A stretch of 64,000 nucleotides of DNA from an uncultured Gammaproteobacteria bacterium (lineage in GTDB: Bacteria; Patescibacteriota; Microgenomatia; JALYQM01), in NCBI GenBank assembly GCA_964525495.1, contig CAZGHS010000001.1, forward strand, positions 10,863 to 74,862, read 5' to 3'. Positions 2,373-16,345 of this stretch are shown piece by piece. Within the stretch, counting starts at the first letter, position 1. Each line of letters begins with the position of its first letter. The notes below the pieces were generated by a model that was not told the DNA's origin, did no database searches, and saw nothing but the letters and a program-made list of their open reading frames with translations. A program made the position numbers and the translations under genes.

Positions 2373-3434
2373 ATGTTTCAGGAAACCTCGCACAATCTAC
2401 ACTTACTTCCCAACCTACCCTACCAATGGATCAAAGATCATCCTGTACACCTTAAATCAGATAGAAGATATAGAGAACTTCTCCAAGCAAAACCCACCAA
2501 AAAATTATCCATCATCATCCCTTTTAGAAACGAGCTCCGCTCAGTTGAATCATTCCTCGTCGCATTAGATATGGCAAAAATACATTCTTATCCCATGCCT
2601 ACAACACTAATCTTTGTGCAAAATGGTTGCACAGATGGCACAGATAAAGTACTTACAAATTGGATACATGTTAAAAACAGTACCCGGCAAACACAAAATT
2701 TAGAAATTCTCCACCTCACAACACCGATAGAATCAAAAGCAAATGCATTAAACATCGCAAACGAAGTTGCCTTACAATCAAATAGCGATATTGCAATCAG
2801 TCTAGATATGGACAACTACTGCGATATCAACACAATTCCAGAGCTGTACTTAGCGCTTTCCCAGTCAGATGCCTCGCTTATCACTGGTACAACCATTACA
2901 CAGCCACGACGGATACCGAGAGGAAAATTAAAGGACATATGTATTCAGTACACATGCTTCAATCCCAAAAAAGATGAAGCGGTAGTAAACGGAATGGTCC
3001 AAGCATGGAAACCGCGGGATATAAAGGATATTGGTGGCTTCCCTCATGTTATTGGGGAAGACTACGCAACAGGATTATTACTTCGCAGTCAAGGAAAAAC
3101 TCATCGCAGATTGCCAGAAGCCAAAGTATGGGGATATAGGGCAAATACTTTCGAAGATAAATTCAAACAATTAGTGCGCGGGCAACGAAGTCTCATACAA
3201 CTTCGCGAGCTTTATCCCCACCTCAGAGATCAAATTCAAAACGATATGCCAGCAACTAATAATTTACTTAATCAGGTTACTGCACATTGGCACTGGGCGT
3301 CCAAAAACTACAAACGCATACCCTTTGCCCTTATTAACATGCCTATTATCTGGGCTGCTCAATATCAAGCAAAAAGACAACATCAAGAAGATCCTTACGT
3401 AAAAACCTGGACTCAAATCGAATCGACAAGATAG
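2373..3434 (+). CDS. Family 2 glycosyltransferase (GT-A fold)
   Basis: Characteristic GT2 N-terminus KKLSIIIPFRNE, a downstream DxD-like SLDMDNYCD, and a length of 353 aa. Confidence 0.6.
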   Translation: MFQETSHNLHLLPNLPYQWIKDHPVHLKSDRRYRELLQAKPTKKLSIIIPFRNELRSVESFLVALDMAKIHSYPMPTTLIFVQNGCTDGTDKVLTNWIHVKNSTRQTQNLEILHLTTPIESKANALNIANEVALQSNSDIAISLDMDNYCDINTIPELYLALSQSDASLITGTTITQPRRIPRGKLKDICIQYTCFNPKKDEAVVNGMVQAWKPRDIKDIGGFPHVIGEDYATGLLLRSQGKTHRRLPEAKVWGYRANTFEDKFKQLVRGQRSLIQLRELYPHLRDQIQNDMPATNNLLNQVTAHWHWASKNYKRIPFALINMPIIWAAQYQAKRQHQEDPYVKTWTQIESTR

Positions 3435-3555
3435 AAATAAAAAAAGCGCCACTTTGCAATGAGATTAATCATCACATCATGGCGCACGATCATGCAAACA
3501 CACTCGAATAGACATTCTCGACGAATATCATTCAAACGCATTCACACCATACAGG

Positions 3556-3810
3556 CTAGTTATCGTATCCACAGTCAGGACAATAAACGTGGGTGTCTCC
3601 TCCTCTATCGTTATACCTTCGAGAATTCGGATGCTTACACCGCCGCTGCAATTGCTTGATCCGAATCCCGATCACTTCTATCTCCTCCTTCAGCGGAGCC
3701 ATTCGTTCTCTGACAGCGTCAGCTTGTTTCTTTAATTCCTTTACCTTATCTGAAATCTCATTCTGACTCACAGATGCCTCCTTCTTAATCCTGATATCCA
3801 CAGTCGTCAC
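3556..3810 (-). CDS. Coiled-coil plus C-terminal zinc-ribbon miniprotein (paralog A)
   Basis: C-terminus RRCKHPNSRRY...CPDCGYDN. The N-terminal region is charged and helical. Confidence 0.45.
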   Translation of the reverse strand: MTTVDIRIKKEASVSQNEISDKVKELKKQADAVRERMAPLKEEIEVIGIRIKQLQRRCKHPNSRRYNDRGGDTHVYCPDCGYDN

Positions 3811-3997
3811 AGATATTCCCTACTTCACCCATCGCTGAGTACTTCCGCATATTTGGGTGAGAGCATCGTCGGATAAGTACGTTCCAATGTGCGTGCTGAA
3901 TCGCTATTTCACCTTCAAGCGCACGAATCCTCCCCCGGATCTGTTCCTTTTCCTTACGAATCGCAATCTGTGAATTGGGTTTGCGAGACATAGTCAT
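3785..3997 (-). CDS. Coiled-coil plus C-terminal zinc-ribbon miniprotein (paralog B), tandem to and overlapping paralog A
   Basis: C-terminus RRCSHPNMRKY...CDDCGYQD shares the motif C-x-HPN-x-R-x-Y...C-x-DCGY with the downstream paralog. Confidence 0.45.
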   Translation of the reverse strand: MTMSRKPNSQIAIRKEKEQIRGRIRALEGEIAIQHAHWNVLIRRCSHPNMRKYSAMGEVGNICDDCGYQD

Positions 3998-4197
3998 GTC
4001 CTTTCTGCCTGTATTTGAAAAGAGCGAAAATAGGAATCAGAATCAACTTCTGGGCCTATTTGTAGCCAATTCTTAGTTTACGTAATATTTACATTAACTA
4101 TCCACATGTTACAACAACAAACTTAAATGTCAATAACGTATTTTATACGTTTACTATTTAACAAAAGCGGAGTATACTAGTCAAAAAGGAGCAAGTT

Positions 4198-4815
4198 ATG
4201 TCTAACTCAATCTACCTCAACAGCCGTGTAGCGATCGACGTCGTTATATTCACTATTCTCGAAGAAAAGCCTCAGGTCCTCCTCCTCAAGCGTCACAAAG
4301 AACCGTTTCAAGGCAAGCTTGAGCTCCCTGGTGGATTGCTTATAGAAAATGAAACCGCTGAACAAACTCTCCAGCGTAAGCTTGGTGAAATTACCAACAC
4401 AAATAACACTCACTTTAACCAATTCCATACGTTTACGAACCCAGTTCGAGATCCTCGAGGTCGCACAATTTCTATTGGATTTCTTGCACTCGTAAATTCA
4501 GAAAAAATGAGCTCGGACTGTGACTGGCATGATGTTAATAATCTTCCCGAATTAGCATTTGATCATGCCGAAATTATTCAATCAGCCTCAAAATATTTAA
4601 AAGAGAATCTAAATCTTCAATTCCTTAAGAGCTATATGCCTATTTACTTCCCACTCAACTCACTTCAAACAGTTTATGAAGTAATACACAATGAAAAATA
4701 TGACAATCGCAACTTCCGAAAGCAGCAGCTAGCGTCCGAAAACATAGTCGAAACAGATAAGCTCGAAAAAGACGTAAAACACCGCCCAGCCAAATTATAT
4801 CGATTTAAAGAATAA
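4198..4815 (+). CDS. NUDIX hydrolase domain protein with a C-terminal extension (NrtR-like architecture possible)
   Basis: Nudix box GGLLIENETAEQTLQRKLGEITN (G-x5-E-x7-REuxEExGu pattern). 205 aa with about 70 aa beyond the Nudix fold. Confidence 0.6.
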   Translation: MSNSIYLNSRVAIDVVIFTILEEKPQVLLLKRHKEPFQGKLELPGGLLIENETAEQTLQRKLGEITNTNNTHFNQFHTFTNPVRDPRGRTISIGFLALVNSEKMSSDCDWHDVNNLPELAFDHAEIIQSASKYLKENLNLQFLKSYMPIYFPLNSLQTVYEVIHNEKYDNRNFRKQQLASENIVETDKLEKDVKHRPAKLYRFKE

Positions 4816-4859
4816 TAACCTATAGTATTTACAAATACCTTAGTCCATGATATAATCAC

Positions 4860-5460
4860 TAGTACCTTTTAAGTAAATTTTGAGGCTAATACACTCAATT
4901 CCTTTCCTTAAAAGTTTGAGCGTTACGCTCAAATCTGTCCCTTAACAGTAAAGATAGAGAATATCTCTTACCTCAAAATCTACAATCTCCTTACAGATTG
5001 GCTATACCCCGCCTGCACTCAATTACTTGAGTCTATACGGGGAATAGTCAATTTTATGCTGCAAATGCAGCAGGGAGAACTCAGTGTCTACGAGAATTGT
5101 GACAACTACACCATCTTCTGGAGTAGTTATCCAAGATTCCCATGGGCGGTTTCTAAACGGACGAGACAGATGGCAACCAAAACAATCCGCCGAATTCGCG
5201 TTTGTCCATCCCGAAGGAAAGCTCAGTCAGAGTGAACCTTGGGTCACAAACGCAGCCTGGATTTTCCCAGCACGCCATGTTCCCCACCAAGGAACACTCA
5301 TTACAGGAAGCCGAAAAGCATTTGGAACATAGTAGAGTCCGAGGGTAAGAGAAACAGACAGCACTTTTTGTGCGTTCAGGCGACCGTTGTTTACAACGTC
5401 CTCGCGTGCACCGCCTGAAGTCTGTCTCTTACCCTCTATCTTTACTGTCTTTTCTAAAAA
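4860..5460 (+). ncRNA. Candidate large structured RNA of unknown class; strand assignment tentative
   Basis: A roughly 700 nt gap between CDSs with clearly higher GC than its surroundings. 4945-4959 (acagtaaagatagag) is perfectly complementary to 5434-5448 (ctctatctttactgt). A 16-bp extended hairpin pairs 5341-5358 with 5421-5436 and has nested inner hairpins (ttcaggcg/cgcctgaa; cgttgt/acaacg). Further local hairpins: actcaa/ttgagt near 5011-5030, gttcc/ggaac near 5279-5295, ttgagcg/cgctcaa at 4915-4933. A -10-like gatataat sits near 4847 and a U-run follows the closing helix. The track ORFs inside this region look spurious. Confidence 0.45.
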
Positions 5461-5524
5461 TCTCACCACTATTGCATTTCTCACTCTTTAGCGACATAAT
5501 AGCTTCTGTATACAGGAGGTTCCT

Positions 5525-6268
5525 ATGCAAATTCGCATACGTACAATATTATTCGCAATTATTCCATTACTCGCACTCACTCTCACCATTTCCTCAGCAT
5601 CAGCTGAAGAATCAACACTTCGCACCAACACATCAAACAGAACAGCAAAACCAACCTTAGAAGATTTTCCAGAACGAAATATGGAAAAAATGCGCACTCA
5701 AGAATTGCGTATAGCCAGCAAAGCTAGCGATATCAAAGCTCGACAGGAAAAAATAGCAACGCGCACTGGAGACATGAAAGAAAAGCGAGAAGAACTCGCA
5801 TCCAGAGCGGCACAAATGCGCGAAGATCGTTGCAAAATGCTCAACGAACGAAACACTCTTCTCCTCACTCGATACGAAAATAACAAGGTTCGACACATTG
5901 CTGAATACCAAAACGTTAAGAAAAAAGTTGAAGAACTAGTTGCTCGACTCAAGACAGATGGCAAAGATACAACCAAACTCGAAGCAGATCTTCGCCAACT
6001 CGATGTGCTTATCAAAAAAGCTAGTGATGACTACACTGCATTCATAACAGCGCTCAAAGATACCAAAAACTATACCTGCGGCAAATCTGAAGGCGCTTAT
6101 GCAGATGCCCTCAAAAAAGCTATGGATAAACTAATGCTCGCACGCCAAAGCTTACTGGCTGTCCGCACATATTACCAAACAACTATCCGACCAGACATAC
6201 TAGCAATCAAAGGAACACGTCCAGCTAGCTCAGCATCACCTATTGGAGATACAACTAATACTCAATAA
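5525..6268 (+). CDS. Secreted coiled-coil protein with a signal peptide
   Basis: N-terminal hydrophobic signal MQIRIRTILFAIIPLLALTLTISSASA followed by long charged helical sequence. A Shine-Dalgarno ggagg lies 8 nt upstream. Confidence 0.5.
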   Translation: MQIRIRTILFAIIPLLALTLTISSASAEESTLRTNTSNRTAKPTLEDFPERNMEKMRTQELRIASKASDIKARQEKIATRTGDMKEKREELASRAAQMREDRCKMLNERNTLLLTRYENNKVRHIAEYQNVKKKVEELVARLKTDGKDTTKLEADLRQLDVLIKKASDDYTAFITALKDTKNYTCGKSEGAYADALKKAMDKLMLARQSLLAVRTYYQTTIRPDILAIKGTRPASSASPIGDTTNTQ

Positions 6269-8762: not shown

Positions 8763-9482
8763 ATGTATGCTAATAATATGATTGCTCGGTTAAATCCATT
8801 AATCGCACTACTCTTTCTACTACCAGCTTTAGTGCTAGGAAACGCCGCATTCGGAGCGTATCAAGAAGCAAGCCAAAAAGTAATACAGGACCAAGGGTCA
8901 TCTTACCGCATTTTTAACGGAGTTACGTTCAAGACGTTTGACAAAAAAATACTCGAAGAGCCTGCGTCGGCTAATCCTAATTCATTCCTAATCCCATTTC
9001 ATCAAACTATAAGAAATGACTACGAGAGCAGCCTAGAATTAGGAAAATACTACCAAGGCACTCAGACCAATCTCACAATTTTTTACGGTGTTCTCGCCCT
9101 AATAGCAATCTTACCCGCTATTGCTACATATGTACTTAATATAGTTAAACTAGAAGGGAATATACTTACTATCAAAACTTTTTTGCCAAGTAGGTACAGG
9201 TCATCGATACAGTCTTCACCAAACCTGTCACTAGATATTTTTTCAATCAGCGAGATAAAGGTTATTCGTACAACACCATTCACAGATCCCATCAGTAGTA
9301 TTGAAAAAACAAACTGGAGAGATCTTCTGGAACTCAGTACGAACATGCACCAAAAAGCGTATATTAACCTCTTTTTAATTCCCGGAGCTAAACATATTAT
9401 TCACACTATCCTTACCAAACGTTCAGAAATCCCACTAACATTCTCTAAGAACTCCTTGAGAGATAACCTAAAAAACATATAA
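8763..9482 (+). CDS. Hypothetical membrane/secreted protein
   Basis: N-terminal signal/TM region and an internal hydrophobic helix. No recognisable motif. Confidence 0.4.
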   Translation: MYANNMIARLNPLIALLFLLPALVLGNAAFGAYQEASQKVIQDQGSSYRIFNGVTFKTFDKKILEEPASANPNSFLIPFHQTIRNDYESSLELGKYYQGTQTNLTIFYGVLALIAILPAIATYVLNIVKLEGNILTIKTFLPSRYRSSIQSSPNLSLDIFSISEIKVIRTTPFTDPISSIEKTNWRDLLELSTNMHQKAYINLFLIPGAKHIIHTILTKRSEIPLTFSKNSLRDNLKNI

Positions 9483-9701
9483 AAACAAAATCGGCACCGA
9501 AGAATAGTTGTATGAATCACTTCAAGACCTTAGCGTCATTACTATAGGCATGATACCACAAGAATCTCAACACAATCTTAGACTGGAAATATAGCCTATA
9601 ATATGATATAATATGCCGAATAATTTGTACTTAAGTATGAACTATTTACGCTTACGAATTATGCACCTTAAAACCATGCAAAAAGCAAAATTATACCTAG
9701 A

Positions 9702-9742
9702 GGGTAGCATTTAGGGCATTTTTAATGCCTTAGATGTTACCC
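9702..9742 (+). repeat. Perfect 19-bp RNA-type hairpin with three G.U pairs
   Basis: gggtagcatttagggcatt-ttt-aatgccttagatgttaccc. Every position pairs, three of them as G.U wobbles that are only valid on the + strand transcript. Confidence 0.5.
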
Positions 9743-10052
9743 TTTAACCGCTACAAGTAAGTGAGGTCTTTCATGGCCATTAAACCGATAGCTGTACTTC
9801 CAGCCGGCTCTACCCTCTTCTCCAGGAATCGATTTGTTCAACAATGGCCGCGGGATATACCCACACAGGCAACAATAATAGCAGTATCTCAAGTTGCCAA
9901 TGTGAAATTCCGATGTGATAACGAAAGCGACTTACTCGACATTTGTAACGTTATTTTAAGAGCTGGTGTCAGAGAAATGCTGTGGTACTACTACATCGCT
10001 CCACGAGCAATAACAGCATAGCAAAATAATTTTGTTTACCATGGTTTCCATC

Positions 10053-10103
10053 GAAGAGAAGTATGCGATATCACACATCCCATACCAAACATACTTCTCT
10101 TCC
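10053..10103. repeat. 13-bp perfect inverted repeat at the 3' end of the 10105..11199 gene; possible terminator hairpin
   Basis: gaagagaagtatg ... catacttctcttc separated by 24 nt and ending 2 nt before the stop codon of the minus-strand gene. Confidence 0.4.
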
Positions 10104-10104
10104 C

Positions 10105-11199
10105 CTAGTCACAATATTTATAAAGTACAGGAACTGTACATCCCATCCCCTTACATACTTCATCAGAATATTTTTTATTAAGTTCAGCATAAACTTTACA
10201 CATATCATCACCTTTATTACGATACAAACACTCAATAACTGGTTGCACGTTAGGACAACTACCACATCCTCCGTGCTGAAACCCTGTCATACTACATGAC
10301 ACAGGCATAGCAGTGGGTTTAGGAGTCGGAGTAGCAATAACTGGTTGATATACATCTACTACCTCATCATCCTTCAGTGTACTTGGATATTTCCTTAAAT
10401 AAGCAGTAAAGATTCGACTCATATCTGTTTTTACTTTATTCCCACTAACATAAACAACATAATTTCCACTTACCCATACATACCGATCTCCAAACTGACC
10501 TTCCTTAACCACATATACTATATCTTTACCAATTTTTGTTTTCTTGGCTGGATCATTAAATAGATTAAGTAAACTCATCATCTCTTTTATTGTTTTATCT
10601 CTGTCTGGACGCTCCTTTACCTGAACACTAGCTATTGGAGATCCTGAATCAAGAAGAGAGTAGCCAACAGAATAGTCCATTCCTCCTAAATATGCAGGGT
10701 ATGCATAAAAACTATCAATTTGCAAATTAAATCCATACAATATGAATATCTGTTCAACACTTTTACCGCTATTCTGCTTAAACTCCATATTAAAGGCACT
10801 AATTAACTTAAACTGATTTATAGCAAATGCAATGAAGGACTGAATCATGGGCACAAAACAAATTATTAAAATAACAATCAAGAATTTCTTTAATTTCTGA
10901 GGATCAAAGCGCCGCATAAACGAAAAAATAATGCAGGCATAAACATACAGCAAGGCAGTATTCCCAATAACACCTGCAGTTTCGTTAATCCTACCAACTG
11001 AGATGTAAACAGGTAAAAAAATAAATGTGAATATATTTGCTAAAGTTATGAAAATACTACTAGAACATCCTAAACTGAGTGCACAACTAAACATCATTCC
11101 TAGTGAAAAAATGTTCACATAGTTAGCCAAAATACATAAAATTATGAAAATAAGTATTGTAAAAAACGTGGGTTTAAAGAATGAAACAAGCCTATTCAT
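10105..11199 (-). CDS. Polytopic membrane protein with a Cys-rich C-terminal extracytoplasmic domain
   Basis: Five or more hydrophobic helices in the N-terminal half. The C-terminal roughly 70 aa contains 10 Cys (CSMTGFQHGGCGSCPNV...CKGMGCTVPVLYKYCD). Confidence 0.5.
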   Translation of the reverse strand: MNRLVSFFKPTFFTILIFIILCILANYVNIFSLGMMFSCALSLGCSSSIFITLANIFTFIFLPVYISVGRINETAGVIGNTALLYVYACIIFSFMRRFDPQKLKKFLIVILIICFVPMIQSFIAFAINQFKLISAFNMEFKQNSGKSVEQIFILYGFNLQIDSFYAYPAYLGGMDYSVGYSLLDSGSPIASVQVKERPDRDKTIKEMMSLLNLFNDPAKKTKIGKDIVYVVKEGQFGDRYVWVSGNYVVYVSGNKVKTDMSRIFTAYLRKYPSTLKDDEVVDVYQPVIATPTPKPTAMPVSCSMTGFQHGGCGSCPNVQPVIECLYRNKGDDMCKVYAELNKKYSDEVCKGMGCTVPVLYKYCD

Positions 11200-14620: not shown

Positions 14621-16339
14621 ATGCTGGAAAAAGCCGTTGCGGCAATGCGTGTCTCATCAACAAAACAAGGTCAAACAGGAGATAGCCCAGAAAGACAAAA
14701 GGAGCGCATCCTACACTACTCGCGCAAACATGGATATGAAATAGCGAAATTCTTTGAATTGTGGGAATCAGCATCAGGAGAGAATCAACCATTACAAAAA
14801 GTAATTGATTATTGTAAGAATCCTGACAATAAAATTAAAGCGATCTTAATTAACTCCATAGACCGATTTACACGCGGCGGATCATTCTTATATGACTCTT
14901 TGCGTTCACAGCTCACAAAATATGGGATAAAGTTAGTTGATACATACGATGTGATCGGGAATGAAAAAGTAAACACTTTAGAGCAATGGGGTGTAAGTTA
15001 TCCAAAATGGTCAGAATTTAGCCCTTCGAGAAAAAATGAAATACTTGCTGCCGAAGATGCAAAAGATGAAATGCGAACTATGCTCACTCGAATGATTGGA
15101 GCTGAAATAGATTATGTAAGGAAAGGCTATCGAGTAAGAGCTGCCCCACCTGGATATATGAACACTAAGGCAGATACAGAGCATGGAATACGATATATTT
15201 TAACTCCTCACCCCAAAGAGTCCGAATGGTTCTACAAAATATTTGAGCTTCGTGCTATGGGTAATTTCTCCGATGATGAAATCGTAGACGAAGTAAACGC
15301 ATTAGGGTTTAGAACCCGCCAGCGCCGCATACGCGACCCGCAAAACAATCAAAGAATCATTGGATACACGGAAGGCAAACCCCTAACAGTCAAAGACCTA
15401 AAACGATACATCCAAATGCCAATCTACTGTGGCGTTAATAATGAGAAATGGCTTTTAGGAGTGCCTGTTAAAGGTAAATTCCCTGGCATCGTATCAATAG
15501 ATATGTGGAATCAAGCAAATCGGGGGAAGTTTACGATTATAGAAGAAGGCGACAATGTTCAATTATATAAAGGTACGCCGCCTGAATGGCAATTAACAAA
15601 ACAAAAAGATAATCCTATTTTTCCTTATAAAAAATATGTTCTCTGTCCTATTTGCAGAAAACCGCTTCTTGGAAGTTCATCCTCAGGAAGACTAAAAAAA
15701 GGATATGGTGGATATCACTGTAGTCGTGGACACAAATACTTTAGAATACCCTTAAAGACATTCAACAAAACAATCGAAACCTTTGTACAGAAATTACATT
15801 TCAGTAAAACCTTCTCCAAAAGATTTCAAGAAATACTTCTCGAAGAGTGGCATAAGCGTAAACTACAAGTTGGAAACGACAGCATTAAGTTAGAAGAACG
15901 AGTTTTGGAGCTAAAACACACAGCTCAAAATATTACACGAAAGATTATAGACACATCATCAGATACAGTGATGAAAGCCTTAGAGGCAGAACTTGAAAAG
16001 GTAGAAAACGAAAAGGCTGCTGCGATATACATACTTAATAAAAAGGAATCGGAAGAGTTGGACATTGAAACCGTGATTGGCTATCTCAAATACTTTATGG
16101 AACACTTAGAGGATTTGGTATTAAATGACTCTAAACCCATACAACAGGCTGCCATTTTTGGACTACTTTTTGAGGAGCCACCAACCTACCAAGAACTAAA
16201 AAATGGAACACCAAGATTAAGCTGTCTATTTGAGCTAAACAAGAAGTTCAAATCTTCAAAAACTATCACTGTGGGCAACAATGGACTCGAACCATTGACC
16301 TCGGTCTTATCAGGACCGCGCTCTAACCACCTGAGCTAG
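14621..16339 (+). CDS. Large serine recombinase (resolvase/invertase-type catalytic domain plus recombinase domain plus zinc ribbon)
   Basis: N-terminal AMRVSSTKQGQTGDSPERQ has the catalytic Ser context, though SSTKQ departs from the typical S-x-x-Q spacing. 572 aa. CPICRKP...YHCSRGH zinc ribbon, then a C-terminal coiled coil. The last roughly 22 codons read antisense through tRNA-Ile. Confidence 0.8.
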   Translation: MLEKAVAAMRVSSTKQGQTGDSPERQKERILHYSRKHGYEIAKFFELWESASGENQPLQKVIDYCKNPDNKIKAILINSIDRFTRGGSFLYDSLRSQLTKYGIKLVDTYDVIGNEKVNTLEQWGVSYPKWSEFSPSRKNEILAAEDAKDEMRTMLTRMIGAEIDYVRKGYRVRAAPPGYMNTKADTEHGIRYILTPHPKESEWFYKIFELRAMGNFSDDEIVDEVNALGFRTRQRRIRDPQNNQRIIGYTEGKPLTVKDLKRYIQMPIYCGVNNEKWLLGVPVKGKFPGIVSIDMWNQANRGKFTIIEEGDNVQLYKGTPPEWQLTKQKDNPIFPYKKYVLCPICRKPLLGSSSSGRLKKGYGGYHCSRGHKYFRIPLKTFNKTIETFVQKLHFSKTFSKRFQEILLEEWHKRKLQVGNDSIKLEERVLELKHTAQNITRKIIDTSSDTVMKALEAELEKVENEKAAAIYILNKKESEELDIETVIGYLKYFMEHLEDLVLNDSKPIQQAAIFGLLFEEPPTYQELKNGTPRLSCLFELNKKFKSSKTITVGNNGLEPLTSVLSGPRSNHLS

Positions 16340-16345
16340 TCGCCC
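16272..16345 (-). tRNA. tRNA-Ile (anticodon GAT)
   Basis: The reverse complement is GGGCGACTAGCTCAGGTGGTTAGAGCGCGGTCCTGATAAGACCGAGGTCAATGGTTCGAGTCCATTGTTGCCCA. The cloverleaf is complete: acceptor 7 bp, D-stem GCTC/GAGC, anticodon stem CGGTC/GACCG with loop CTGATAA, T-arm AATGG-TTCGAGT-CCATT. Confidence 0.8.

Follow-up and report, generated by a model that had tools for sequence, protein, structure and literature searches.

Fold-back control of small-protein mRNAs is known mainly from the type I toxins of enterobacteria and Helicobacter. In Staphylococcus aureus, the 3′ UTR of the mRNA of a non-toxin gene, icaR, pairs with its own 5′ UTR, and this affects translation initiation and stability. 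To our knowledge, post-transcriptional regulation in Candidate Phyla Radiation (CPR) bacteria is almost unexplored. The hok mRNA has a long-distance stem between its 5′ and 3′ UTRs, together with an anti-Shine-Dalgarno (anti-SD) box that sequesters the ribosome-binding site (PMC9841398). The region described here comes from a CPR-type host and lies within a 64 kb stretch of DNA, termed the window, to which all positions refer unless another locus is named. The window has a GC content of 0.40 and codes for LepA, MurJ, a type IV pilin motif, FUR and YibE/F. Region 4828-5455 is probably a stand-alone (+) strand transcription unit that specifies a structured, 5′-3′ closed mRNA for an orphan small protein. 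This reading is based on UTR helices that recur in a diverged homologue while ORF-internal pairs do not, on a coding signature present in frame 0 only, and on a promoter footprint. The features are listed in Table 1.

Table 1. Features of the structured small-ORF unit and of a second unit of the same layout (positions in the window)
Feature	Position	Strand	Description
Promoter P1	4828-4856	+	TTTACA-17 nt-TATAAT, TGn extended -10; 11 of 12 consensus matches
Leader, whole	4863-5083		76% identity to L082
Leader hairpin 1	4866-4914 (4866-4877/4903-4914)	+	In independent MFE folds of window and L082
Leader hairpin 2	4915-4933	+	TTTGAGCG-TTA-CGCTCAAA; only inner 4 bp kept in L082
Leader part	4919-5064		75-83% identity to L082
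Long-range helix, 5′ arm	4945-4959	+	ACAGTAAAGATAGAG; perfect reverse complement of 5434-5448
Second long-range arm	4964-4974	+	TCTCTTACCTC; pairs with 5340-5352, GGGTAAGAGA; in MFE of both sequences
Anti-SD	4986-4991	+	UCUCCU; predicted pairing with SD 5073-5078 in 5′ UTR fold
Long leader hairpin	4995-5054	+	23 shared pairs in both independent folds
Unannotated ORF (centre)	5084-5332	+	82 aa, MSTRIVTTTPSSGVVIQDSHGRFLNGRDRWQPKQSAEFAFVHPEGKLSQSEPWVTNAAWIFPARHVPHQGTLITGSRKAFGT; GTG start, SD, conserved frame in L082; 57% nucleotide identity to L082, 45-67% in 60-nt windows
3′ UTR branched hairpin	5341-5436	+	Outer stem 12 + 5 bp (5341-5359/5420-5436); z = -5.6
3′ hairpin, inner stems	5377-5383/5402-5408 and 5385-5389/5394-5398	+	
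3′ part	5392-5479		92-97% identity to L082
Long-range helix, 3′ arm	5434-5448	+	Pairs with 4945-4959
U-rich tail	5449-5455	+	CUUUUCU; read from sequence
Promoter P2	5472-5500	+	TTGCAT-17-CATAAT; hexamers conserved in L082; right boundary of unit
Second unit, promoter-like site	9584-9612	+	TGGAAA-17-TATAAT
Second unit, long-range arms	9671-9694/10026-10047	+	Enclose 82-aa ORF
Second unit, perfect hairpin	~9696-9745	+	23 bp
Second unit, ORF	ATG 9773 to stop 10021	+	82 aa
Second unit, 3′ hairpin	10053-10102	+	13 bp

The structured region is flanked by an NrtR-like Nudix gene (4198-4815) and by the gene of a 247-aa secreted-looking protein (5525-6268). A preliminary description had presented the stretch as the longest non-coding one in the window and as GC-rich. 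Neither point holds as stated: a conserved 82-codon ORF lies inside it, and inter-ORF gaps of similar size are present at 3432-4161 and 9480-10107. GC enrichment is modest, 0.44 for the whole region against the window mean of 0.40; the leader has 0.38, and the value of 0.49 is confined to the ORF and 3′ UTR. At 3556-3997 on the (-) strand, two small ORFs, of 84 and 70 aa, are arranged in tandem with a slight overlap. Both combine a coiled-coil N-terminal half with a zinc-ribbon-like motif (HPN...CxDCGY) at the C terminus, no Pfam family matches either, and a 25-bp hairpin comes after the pair. Farther downstream, at 14621-16345, the window encodes a large serine recombinase of 572 aa with an N-terminal Resolvase domain. 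The 3′ end of this gene overlaps a tRNA-Ile(GAT) gene (16271-16345, - strand), and an integrated element may have its boundary here.

The NrtR-like protein, encoded on the (+) strand, consists of a Nudix domain and an NrtR winged-helix domain. Nearly all of its closest relatives (51-60% identity) come from MAGs of DPANN archaea (Woesearchaeota, Nanoarchaeota) and a few come from CPR bacteria; this suggests exchange of the gene between these episymbiont lineages.

Homologues of the region were sought via the syntenic loci of its two flanking genes. None of the 80 loci of NrtR-like Nudix relatives, mostly from DPANN archaea or other CPR, has the element. Searching with the downstream 247-aa protein produced relatives of graded similarity, among which one locus carries the element and three do not. 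The locus with the element, L082 (JGI 3300062822), is from a related CPR-type bacterium and is the closest relative by the 247-aa protein (85% amino-acid identity). Its positions 553-1253 align with 4822-5520 of the window and constitute a homologue of the whole region. L089, a contig from a second JGI sample, duplicates L082 at 99.7% identity. The sole difference between the two inside the element is a G to A change at L082 position 1153 (5420 in the window), by which a C-G pair of the 3′ hairpin becomes a C-A mismatch. Comparisons of covariation and dN/dS rest on two diverged sequences, those of the window and L082, and the statistics are thin because only these two exist.

The ORF protein gave no match in a word-index look-up, and an exhaustive phmmer search of 1.84 billion representative proteins returned the L082 protein only. 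Look-ups in 90%-identity clusters yielded singletons only, and a metagenome scan with the invariant 20-mer TCTTACCCTCTATCTTTACT yielded two chance matches only. No homologue was found in a scan of viral contigs or by distant BLAST against plasmids and phages.

Position 4817, just 5′ of promoter P1, is where homology with L082 sets in, and synteny is broken immediately upstream. The NrtR-like gene is not syntenic in L082; in its place, upstream of the element, is an unrelated GC-rich segment (L082 150-530) with a 93-aa ORF (172-453) and a 17-bp terminator-like hairpin (465-528). In relatives at 47-59% identity, the slot upstream of the 247-aa gene holds RelB/YafQ genes or a 603-aa gene, without the element. 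In these more distant relatives the structured small-ORF unit is replaced by a RelB/YafQ toxin-antitoxin pair or by other genes (L083 87-371, L084 114-678, L085 1134-1697). The locus upstream of the 247-aa gene is thus a variable accessory slot.

Sequence identity between the window and L082, about 78% in the neighbouring genes, is distributed very unevenly over the element. The 3′ part is highly conserved although synonymous sites of the ORF are saturated, and the centre is the most divergent part (Table 1). The ORF at 5084-5332 is not called as a gene in the source genome record. An SD sequence, GGGAG at 5073-5077 (+), can be read 6 nt 5′ of the GTG at 5084; in L082 the GTG is at position 818 with AAGGAG 7 nt before it. 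The stop codons of the two ORFs are one codon apart. The product and that of L082 818-1069 align without gaps over 80 residues at 54% amino-acid identity, with 57% of nucleotides matching. Differences at the three codon positions number 31, 25 and 48, an excess at third positions. In frame 0, pS is 0.76 (saturated) and pN is 0.33; in the other two frames pS and pN are about equal, near 0.4. Under a null model with the same number of random substitutions, the frame stays open in 4% of trials, and 23.6 +/- 3 residues are identical as against 43 observed. The ORF has no indels relative to L082, read without gaps from GTG to GTG (the MAFFT alignment places one 2-nt gap at the start codon), versus eight in the UTRs. 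Its GC1/2/3 values are 0.57/0.53/0.36, and the GC3 of the genome is 0.37. The codon-usage score is positive in this (+) frame only, and no antisense frame is open across 5084-5332 in both the window and L082.

Thus 5084-5332 very probably encodes a protein, because the frame is free of indels, pS greatly exceeds pN in one frame only, identity exceeds that of the null model, and GC3 is host-like. The marks of a small-ORF gene, i.e. an indel-free frame, synonymous excess, an SD with a start codon and a host-like third position, are all found, on one diverged homologue. The gene belongs to a new family, whereas small-protein genes in structured mRNAs are as such already known.

The 82-aa protein has no match in sequence searches of Pfam, PHROGs, PADLOC, NCBIfam and PDB. 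As read from its sequence it is hydrophilic, with no hydrophobic stretch and no transmembrane helix. An AF2 model of mediocre quality (pLDDT 65) is beta-rich and has no meaningful structural neighbours. The product is an orphan, soluble and probably beta-rich. Between the window and L082 it diverges much faster than its UTRs and faster than the neighbouring genes.

The signals that flank the ORF point to an independent transcription unit. In L082, the hexamers of promoter P1 and their 17-nt spacing are identical, and 10 of the 17 spacer bases differ. Transcription would start at about 4863. Promoter P2 also has a changed spacer, in which the block CACTCTT reads GAAACAG in L082, and appears to serve the downstream 247-aa gene. 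As P2 is separate and conserved, the element is taken to be its own transcription unit and not the leader of the downstream gene. A scan found no canonical intrinsic terminator. The 3′ hairpin and the long-range helix, followed by the U-rich tail, probably form the 3′ end of the transcript. On the (-) strand, no conserved promoter-like site was found inside the unit when the window and L082 were compared, a consensus scan being weak evidence of absence.

At the RNA level, the 601-nt stretch 4860-5460 is highly structured. Its MFE is -200 kcal/mol, with z-scores against shuffles of -10.1 for the (+) strand and -8.4 for the (-) strand; by part, z is -7.7 for the leader alone and -5.6 for the trailer alone. 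Independent MFE folds of the window and L082 transcripts have 84 base pairs in common. Thirty-eight of these are within the leader, 19 within the trailer and 22 between leader and trailer, whereas within the ORF only five of the 71 pairs predicted in the window are shared. The 79 shared UTR pairs include four compensatory pairs and six with G-U. The structure that is conserved is thus that of the two UTRs, 5′ and 3′, of a probable small-protein mRNA.

The strength of the fold raises the question of whether the region is instead a genuine non-coding RNA of large size (about 500-600 nt) and of a new ornate class, with an incidental ORF. The very strong z-scores, a closing helix with nested hairpins as is typical of ornate RNAs, and the folding of the ORF segment alone beyond its shuffles (z = -2.4 in the window, -5.0 in L082) are in keeping with such an RNA, as are the orphan product and the uncalled gene. 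An RNA of this kind should, however, have no conserved frame and should keep its structure throughout the molecule. Here the central 250 nt differ by 43% without indels, the same 82-codon frame is open with the same start and stop region, the third-position and synonymous excess occurs in that frame only, GC3 equals that of the genome, and the central pairs are scarcely shared. Nor is there an Rfam match: cmscan of the whole window at gathering thresholds returned two tRNAs only, and permissive scans of 4700-5650 and of L082 540-1260, to E = 10, gave only chance matches with E > 0.1 to unrelated families. ARAGORN found no tmRNA. On this evidence a large non-coding RNA is unlikely.

RNase P RNA, tmRNA, ROOL and GOLLD, which the preliminary description had put forward as candidates, are ruled out along with other Rfam large RNAs, as no covariance model matches. 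Its statement that the RNA is unassigned to any class is borne out, since no Rfam family is matched in either copy, and the motif-like stretches it named, GGAAAG at 5216 and GGTAAGAG at 5344, are both present. Its suggestion of a divergent or novel large RNA survives in part. The region is conserved and highly structured with a long-range closing helix, but it is probably not a large non-coding RNA, given the conserved coding ORF and the unconserved structure of the centre. The outcomes that it had named as speaking against its proposal are largely what was found: no covariance-model match, an ORF conserved with a coding signature, and covariation limited to two UTR hairpins.

These two hairpins carry the compensatory changes. 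In leader hairpin 1, the pairs 4871/4909 and 4877/4903 change from A-U to G-C, and one U-A pair becomes U-G. In the inner stems of the 3′ hairpin, adjacent pairs change in opposite directions, G-C to A-U at 5382/5403 and A-U to G-C at 5383/5402; this nested hairpin had been noted before and exists, with an outer stem of 12 + 5 bp. The covariation looked for in a homologous locus is therefore present as four compensatory pairs, but it does not extend to the 15-bp helix. In the long leader hairpin (4995-5054), two G-U pairs are invariant, and one-sided changes from U-A to U-G and from G-U to G-C retain pairing. Such invariant and interconverting G-U pairs favour a (+) strand RNA over a (-) strand or DNA-level feature. 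A helix 4873-4885/4971-4983, predicted for the leader alone, was dropped, as it is not conserved in L082.

The pairing of 4945-4959 with 5434-5448, claimed from the outset, is confirmed as a perfect 15-nt complement. A perfect inverted repeat of 15 nt was reached in none of 300 dinucleotide shuffles of 4860-5460, in which the longest one measured 7-13 nt (mode 8). The helix is present in both the MFE and centroid structures. Both of its arms are invariant in L082, against a difference of 24% for the leader overall. For this helix, therefore, RNA-level and DNA-level selection are inseparable, and it provides no covariation evidence. Adjacent to it is the second long-range helix, of about 10 bp, which the two sequences share at 4965-4973 with 5342-5351. 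Two copies of the motif TCTCTTACC, at 4964 and 5425, can each pair with GGTAAGAGA at 5344, so that the pairing 4964-4974/5340-5352 competes with the local 3′ copy at 5425-5433.

Alternatively, the perfect and invariant 15-bp repeats could be sites that act as DNA: the ends of an inverton, in which the SD and ORF would flip while the promoter stays fixed, or terminal repeats belonging to a small mobile element. The repeat does flank a segment of 474 bp and leaves the promoter outside it, more distant relatives lack the element in this slot, and synteny ends immediately upstream. An inverton would have a site-specific recombinase close by and occur in both orientations in the population; there is no recombinase within 9 kb, and the four assemblies (the window, L001, L082 and L089) all have the one orientation. 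Target-site duplications are absent, as are further copies in the 64 kb or in the fetched loci, conservation runs well beyond the repeats, and the G-U pairs and compensatory changes of neighbouring helices point to selection on RNA. DNA-level sites are highly improbable. A retron, a group II intron and a MITE were likewise rejected, there being no reverse transcriptase, Rfam match, target-site duplication or second copy.

In the reading preferred here, that of a structured small-protein mRNA, the initiation region has predicted properties of its own. The SD of the window has a predicted unpaired probability of 0.02 in nascent, full-length and 3′-truncated transcripts alike. In L082 it is the start codon that is buried instead, with a predicted unpaired probability of at most 0.08. 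Occlusion of the initiation region would then be a shared outcome, reached in silico by different pairings in the two genomes. In the window the predicted occlusion of the SD is independent of the 3′ arm, as removal of the arm leaves the SD paired, and the idea that 3′ trimming frees the SD, as in hok, was rejected because it is not reproduced in silico.

The probable arrangement is as follows. A strong sigma-70-type promoter would drive a transcript of about 590 nt, in which a structured leader (about 220 nt) and a structured trailer (about 125 nt) flank the 82-codon ORF. Leader and trailer would be joined by the 15-bp helix and its neighbour of about 10 bp, which place the ORF inside a closed domain of about 475 nt, with the ribosome-binding region buried by local leader structure. 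The closed form may shield the mRNA ends and hold basal translation low, and expression would then need a trigger, for example processing, temperature, ribosome standby or a trans-acting RNA or protein. Perhaps the duplicated TCTCTTACC permits a switch between the local 3′ hairpin and 5′-3′ closure. A role of the closed mRNA in stability and translation gating is proposed tentatively and is open to considerable doubt; the gating mechanism is speculative because occlusion of the SD differs between the two genomes and does not depend on the 3′ arm in silico.

A buried initiation region also brings to mind a type I toxin-antitoxin or abortive-infection-like module, in which fold-back and SD sequestration keep the mRNA inert, as in hok/Sok and aapA/IsoA, and the small protein is the toxin. 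The layout parallels that of the hok mRNA with its long-distance 5′-3′ UTR stem and anti-SD (PMC9841398), the initiation region is predicted to be occluded in both copies, and the duplicated TCTCTTACC makes alternative pairings possible. The RelB/YafQ genes found in the slot in relatives and the fast evolution of the protein fit as well. Such a module is nevertheless improbable here: the unit has no conserved antisense promoter, removal of the 3′ arm does not free the SD in silico, and the product, hydrophilic, 82 aa long and without a transmembrane helix or any PADLOC or Pfam match, is unlike typical type I toxins. Another unlikely reading is that the conserved UTR scaffold, with its 92-97% identity in the 3′ part, also has a function as RNA. 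The unit would then be a dual-function RNA, or a new fold-back-gated CPR toxin or defence cassette with a fast-evolving, non-membrane effector. Given a second unit of like layout 4.5 kb away, this would be a recurrent and so far undescribed form of packaging for small accessory genes in these reduced genomes.

A second small-ORF unit with the same layout is present 4.5 kb downstream, at 9584-10105 (+), with a fold z of -5.6 to -7.3 (Table 1). Paralogy of its ORF (9773-10021) with that at 5084-5332 was rejected, as the proteins are unrelated, and the second unit has no homologue among the fetched loci. Its presence hints that closed packaging of small ORFs is recurrent in this genome.

The region illustrates how the gene of a small protein, when unannotated and carried on a structured mRNA, can be mistaken for a large non-coding RNA. 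So far it is a lineage-restricted case, known from two diverged members. If the 5′-3′ closed architecture is functional, fold-back control of small-protein mRNAs would be extended to CPR bacteria, and an orphan, fast-evolving small protein would be flagged for study.

Several described systems resemble the unit in part. With ROOL, GOLLD, OLE, raiA, RNase P RNA and tmRNA it has in common a size of about 600 nt, a multi-branched fold, a long terminal helix and an intergenic location. It differs from all of them in having no covariance-model match and a protein-coding centre whose structure is not conserved. The predicted UTR-UTR pairing within one mRNA is also a property of icaR, to which the unit has no sequence relationship. 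The 3′ UTR of icaR pairs directly with the SD, whereas the long-range helix of the window lies about 115 nt upstream of the SD, which is masked by the local anti-SD.

The closest likeness in layout is to the hok/Sok and aapA/IsoA mRNAs. The unit differs from these in that no antisense RNA gene or promoter was found, in the lack of sequence or Rfam similarity, in a hydrophilic product of 82 aa as against a hok-type hydrophobic peptide of under 60 aa, in a predicted SD occlusion that is independent of the 3′ arm, and in its CPR-type host. Like them, however, it places a small ORF within an mRNA of about 0.4-0.6 kb that is highly structured, with a 5′-3′ UTR stem, an upstream box that masks the ribosome-binding site, and alternative pairings. 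In silico the likeness extends to both homologues: the 5′-3′ UTR helices are present in the MFE and centroid structures of each, and the SD in the window, or the start codon in L082, is paired.
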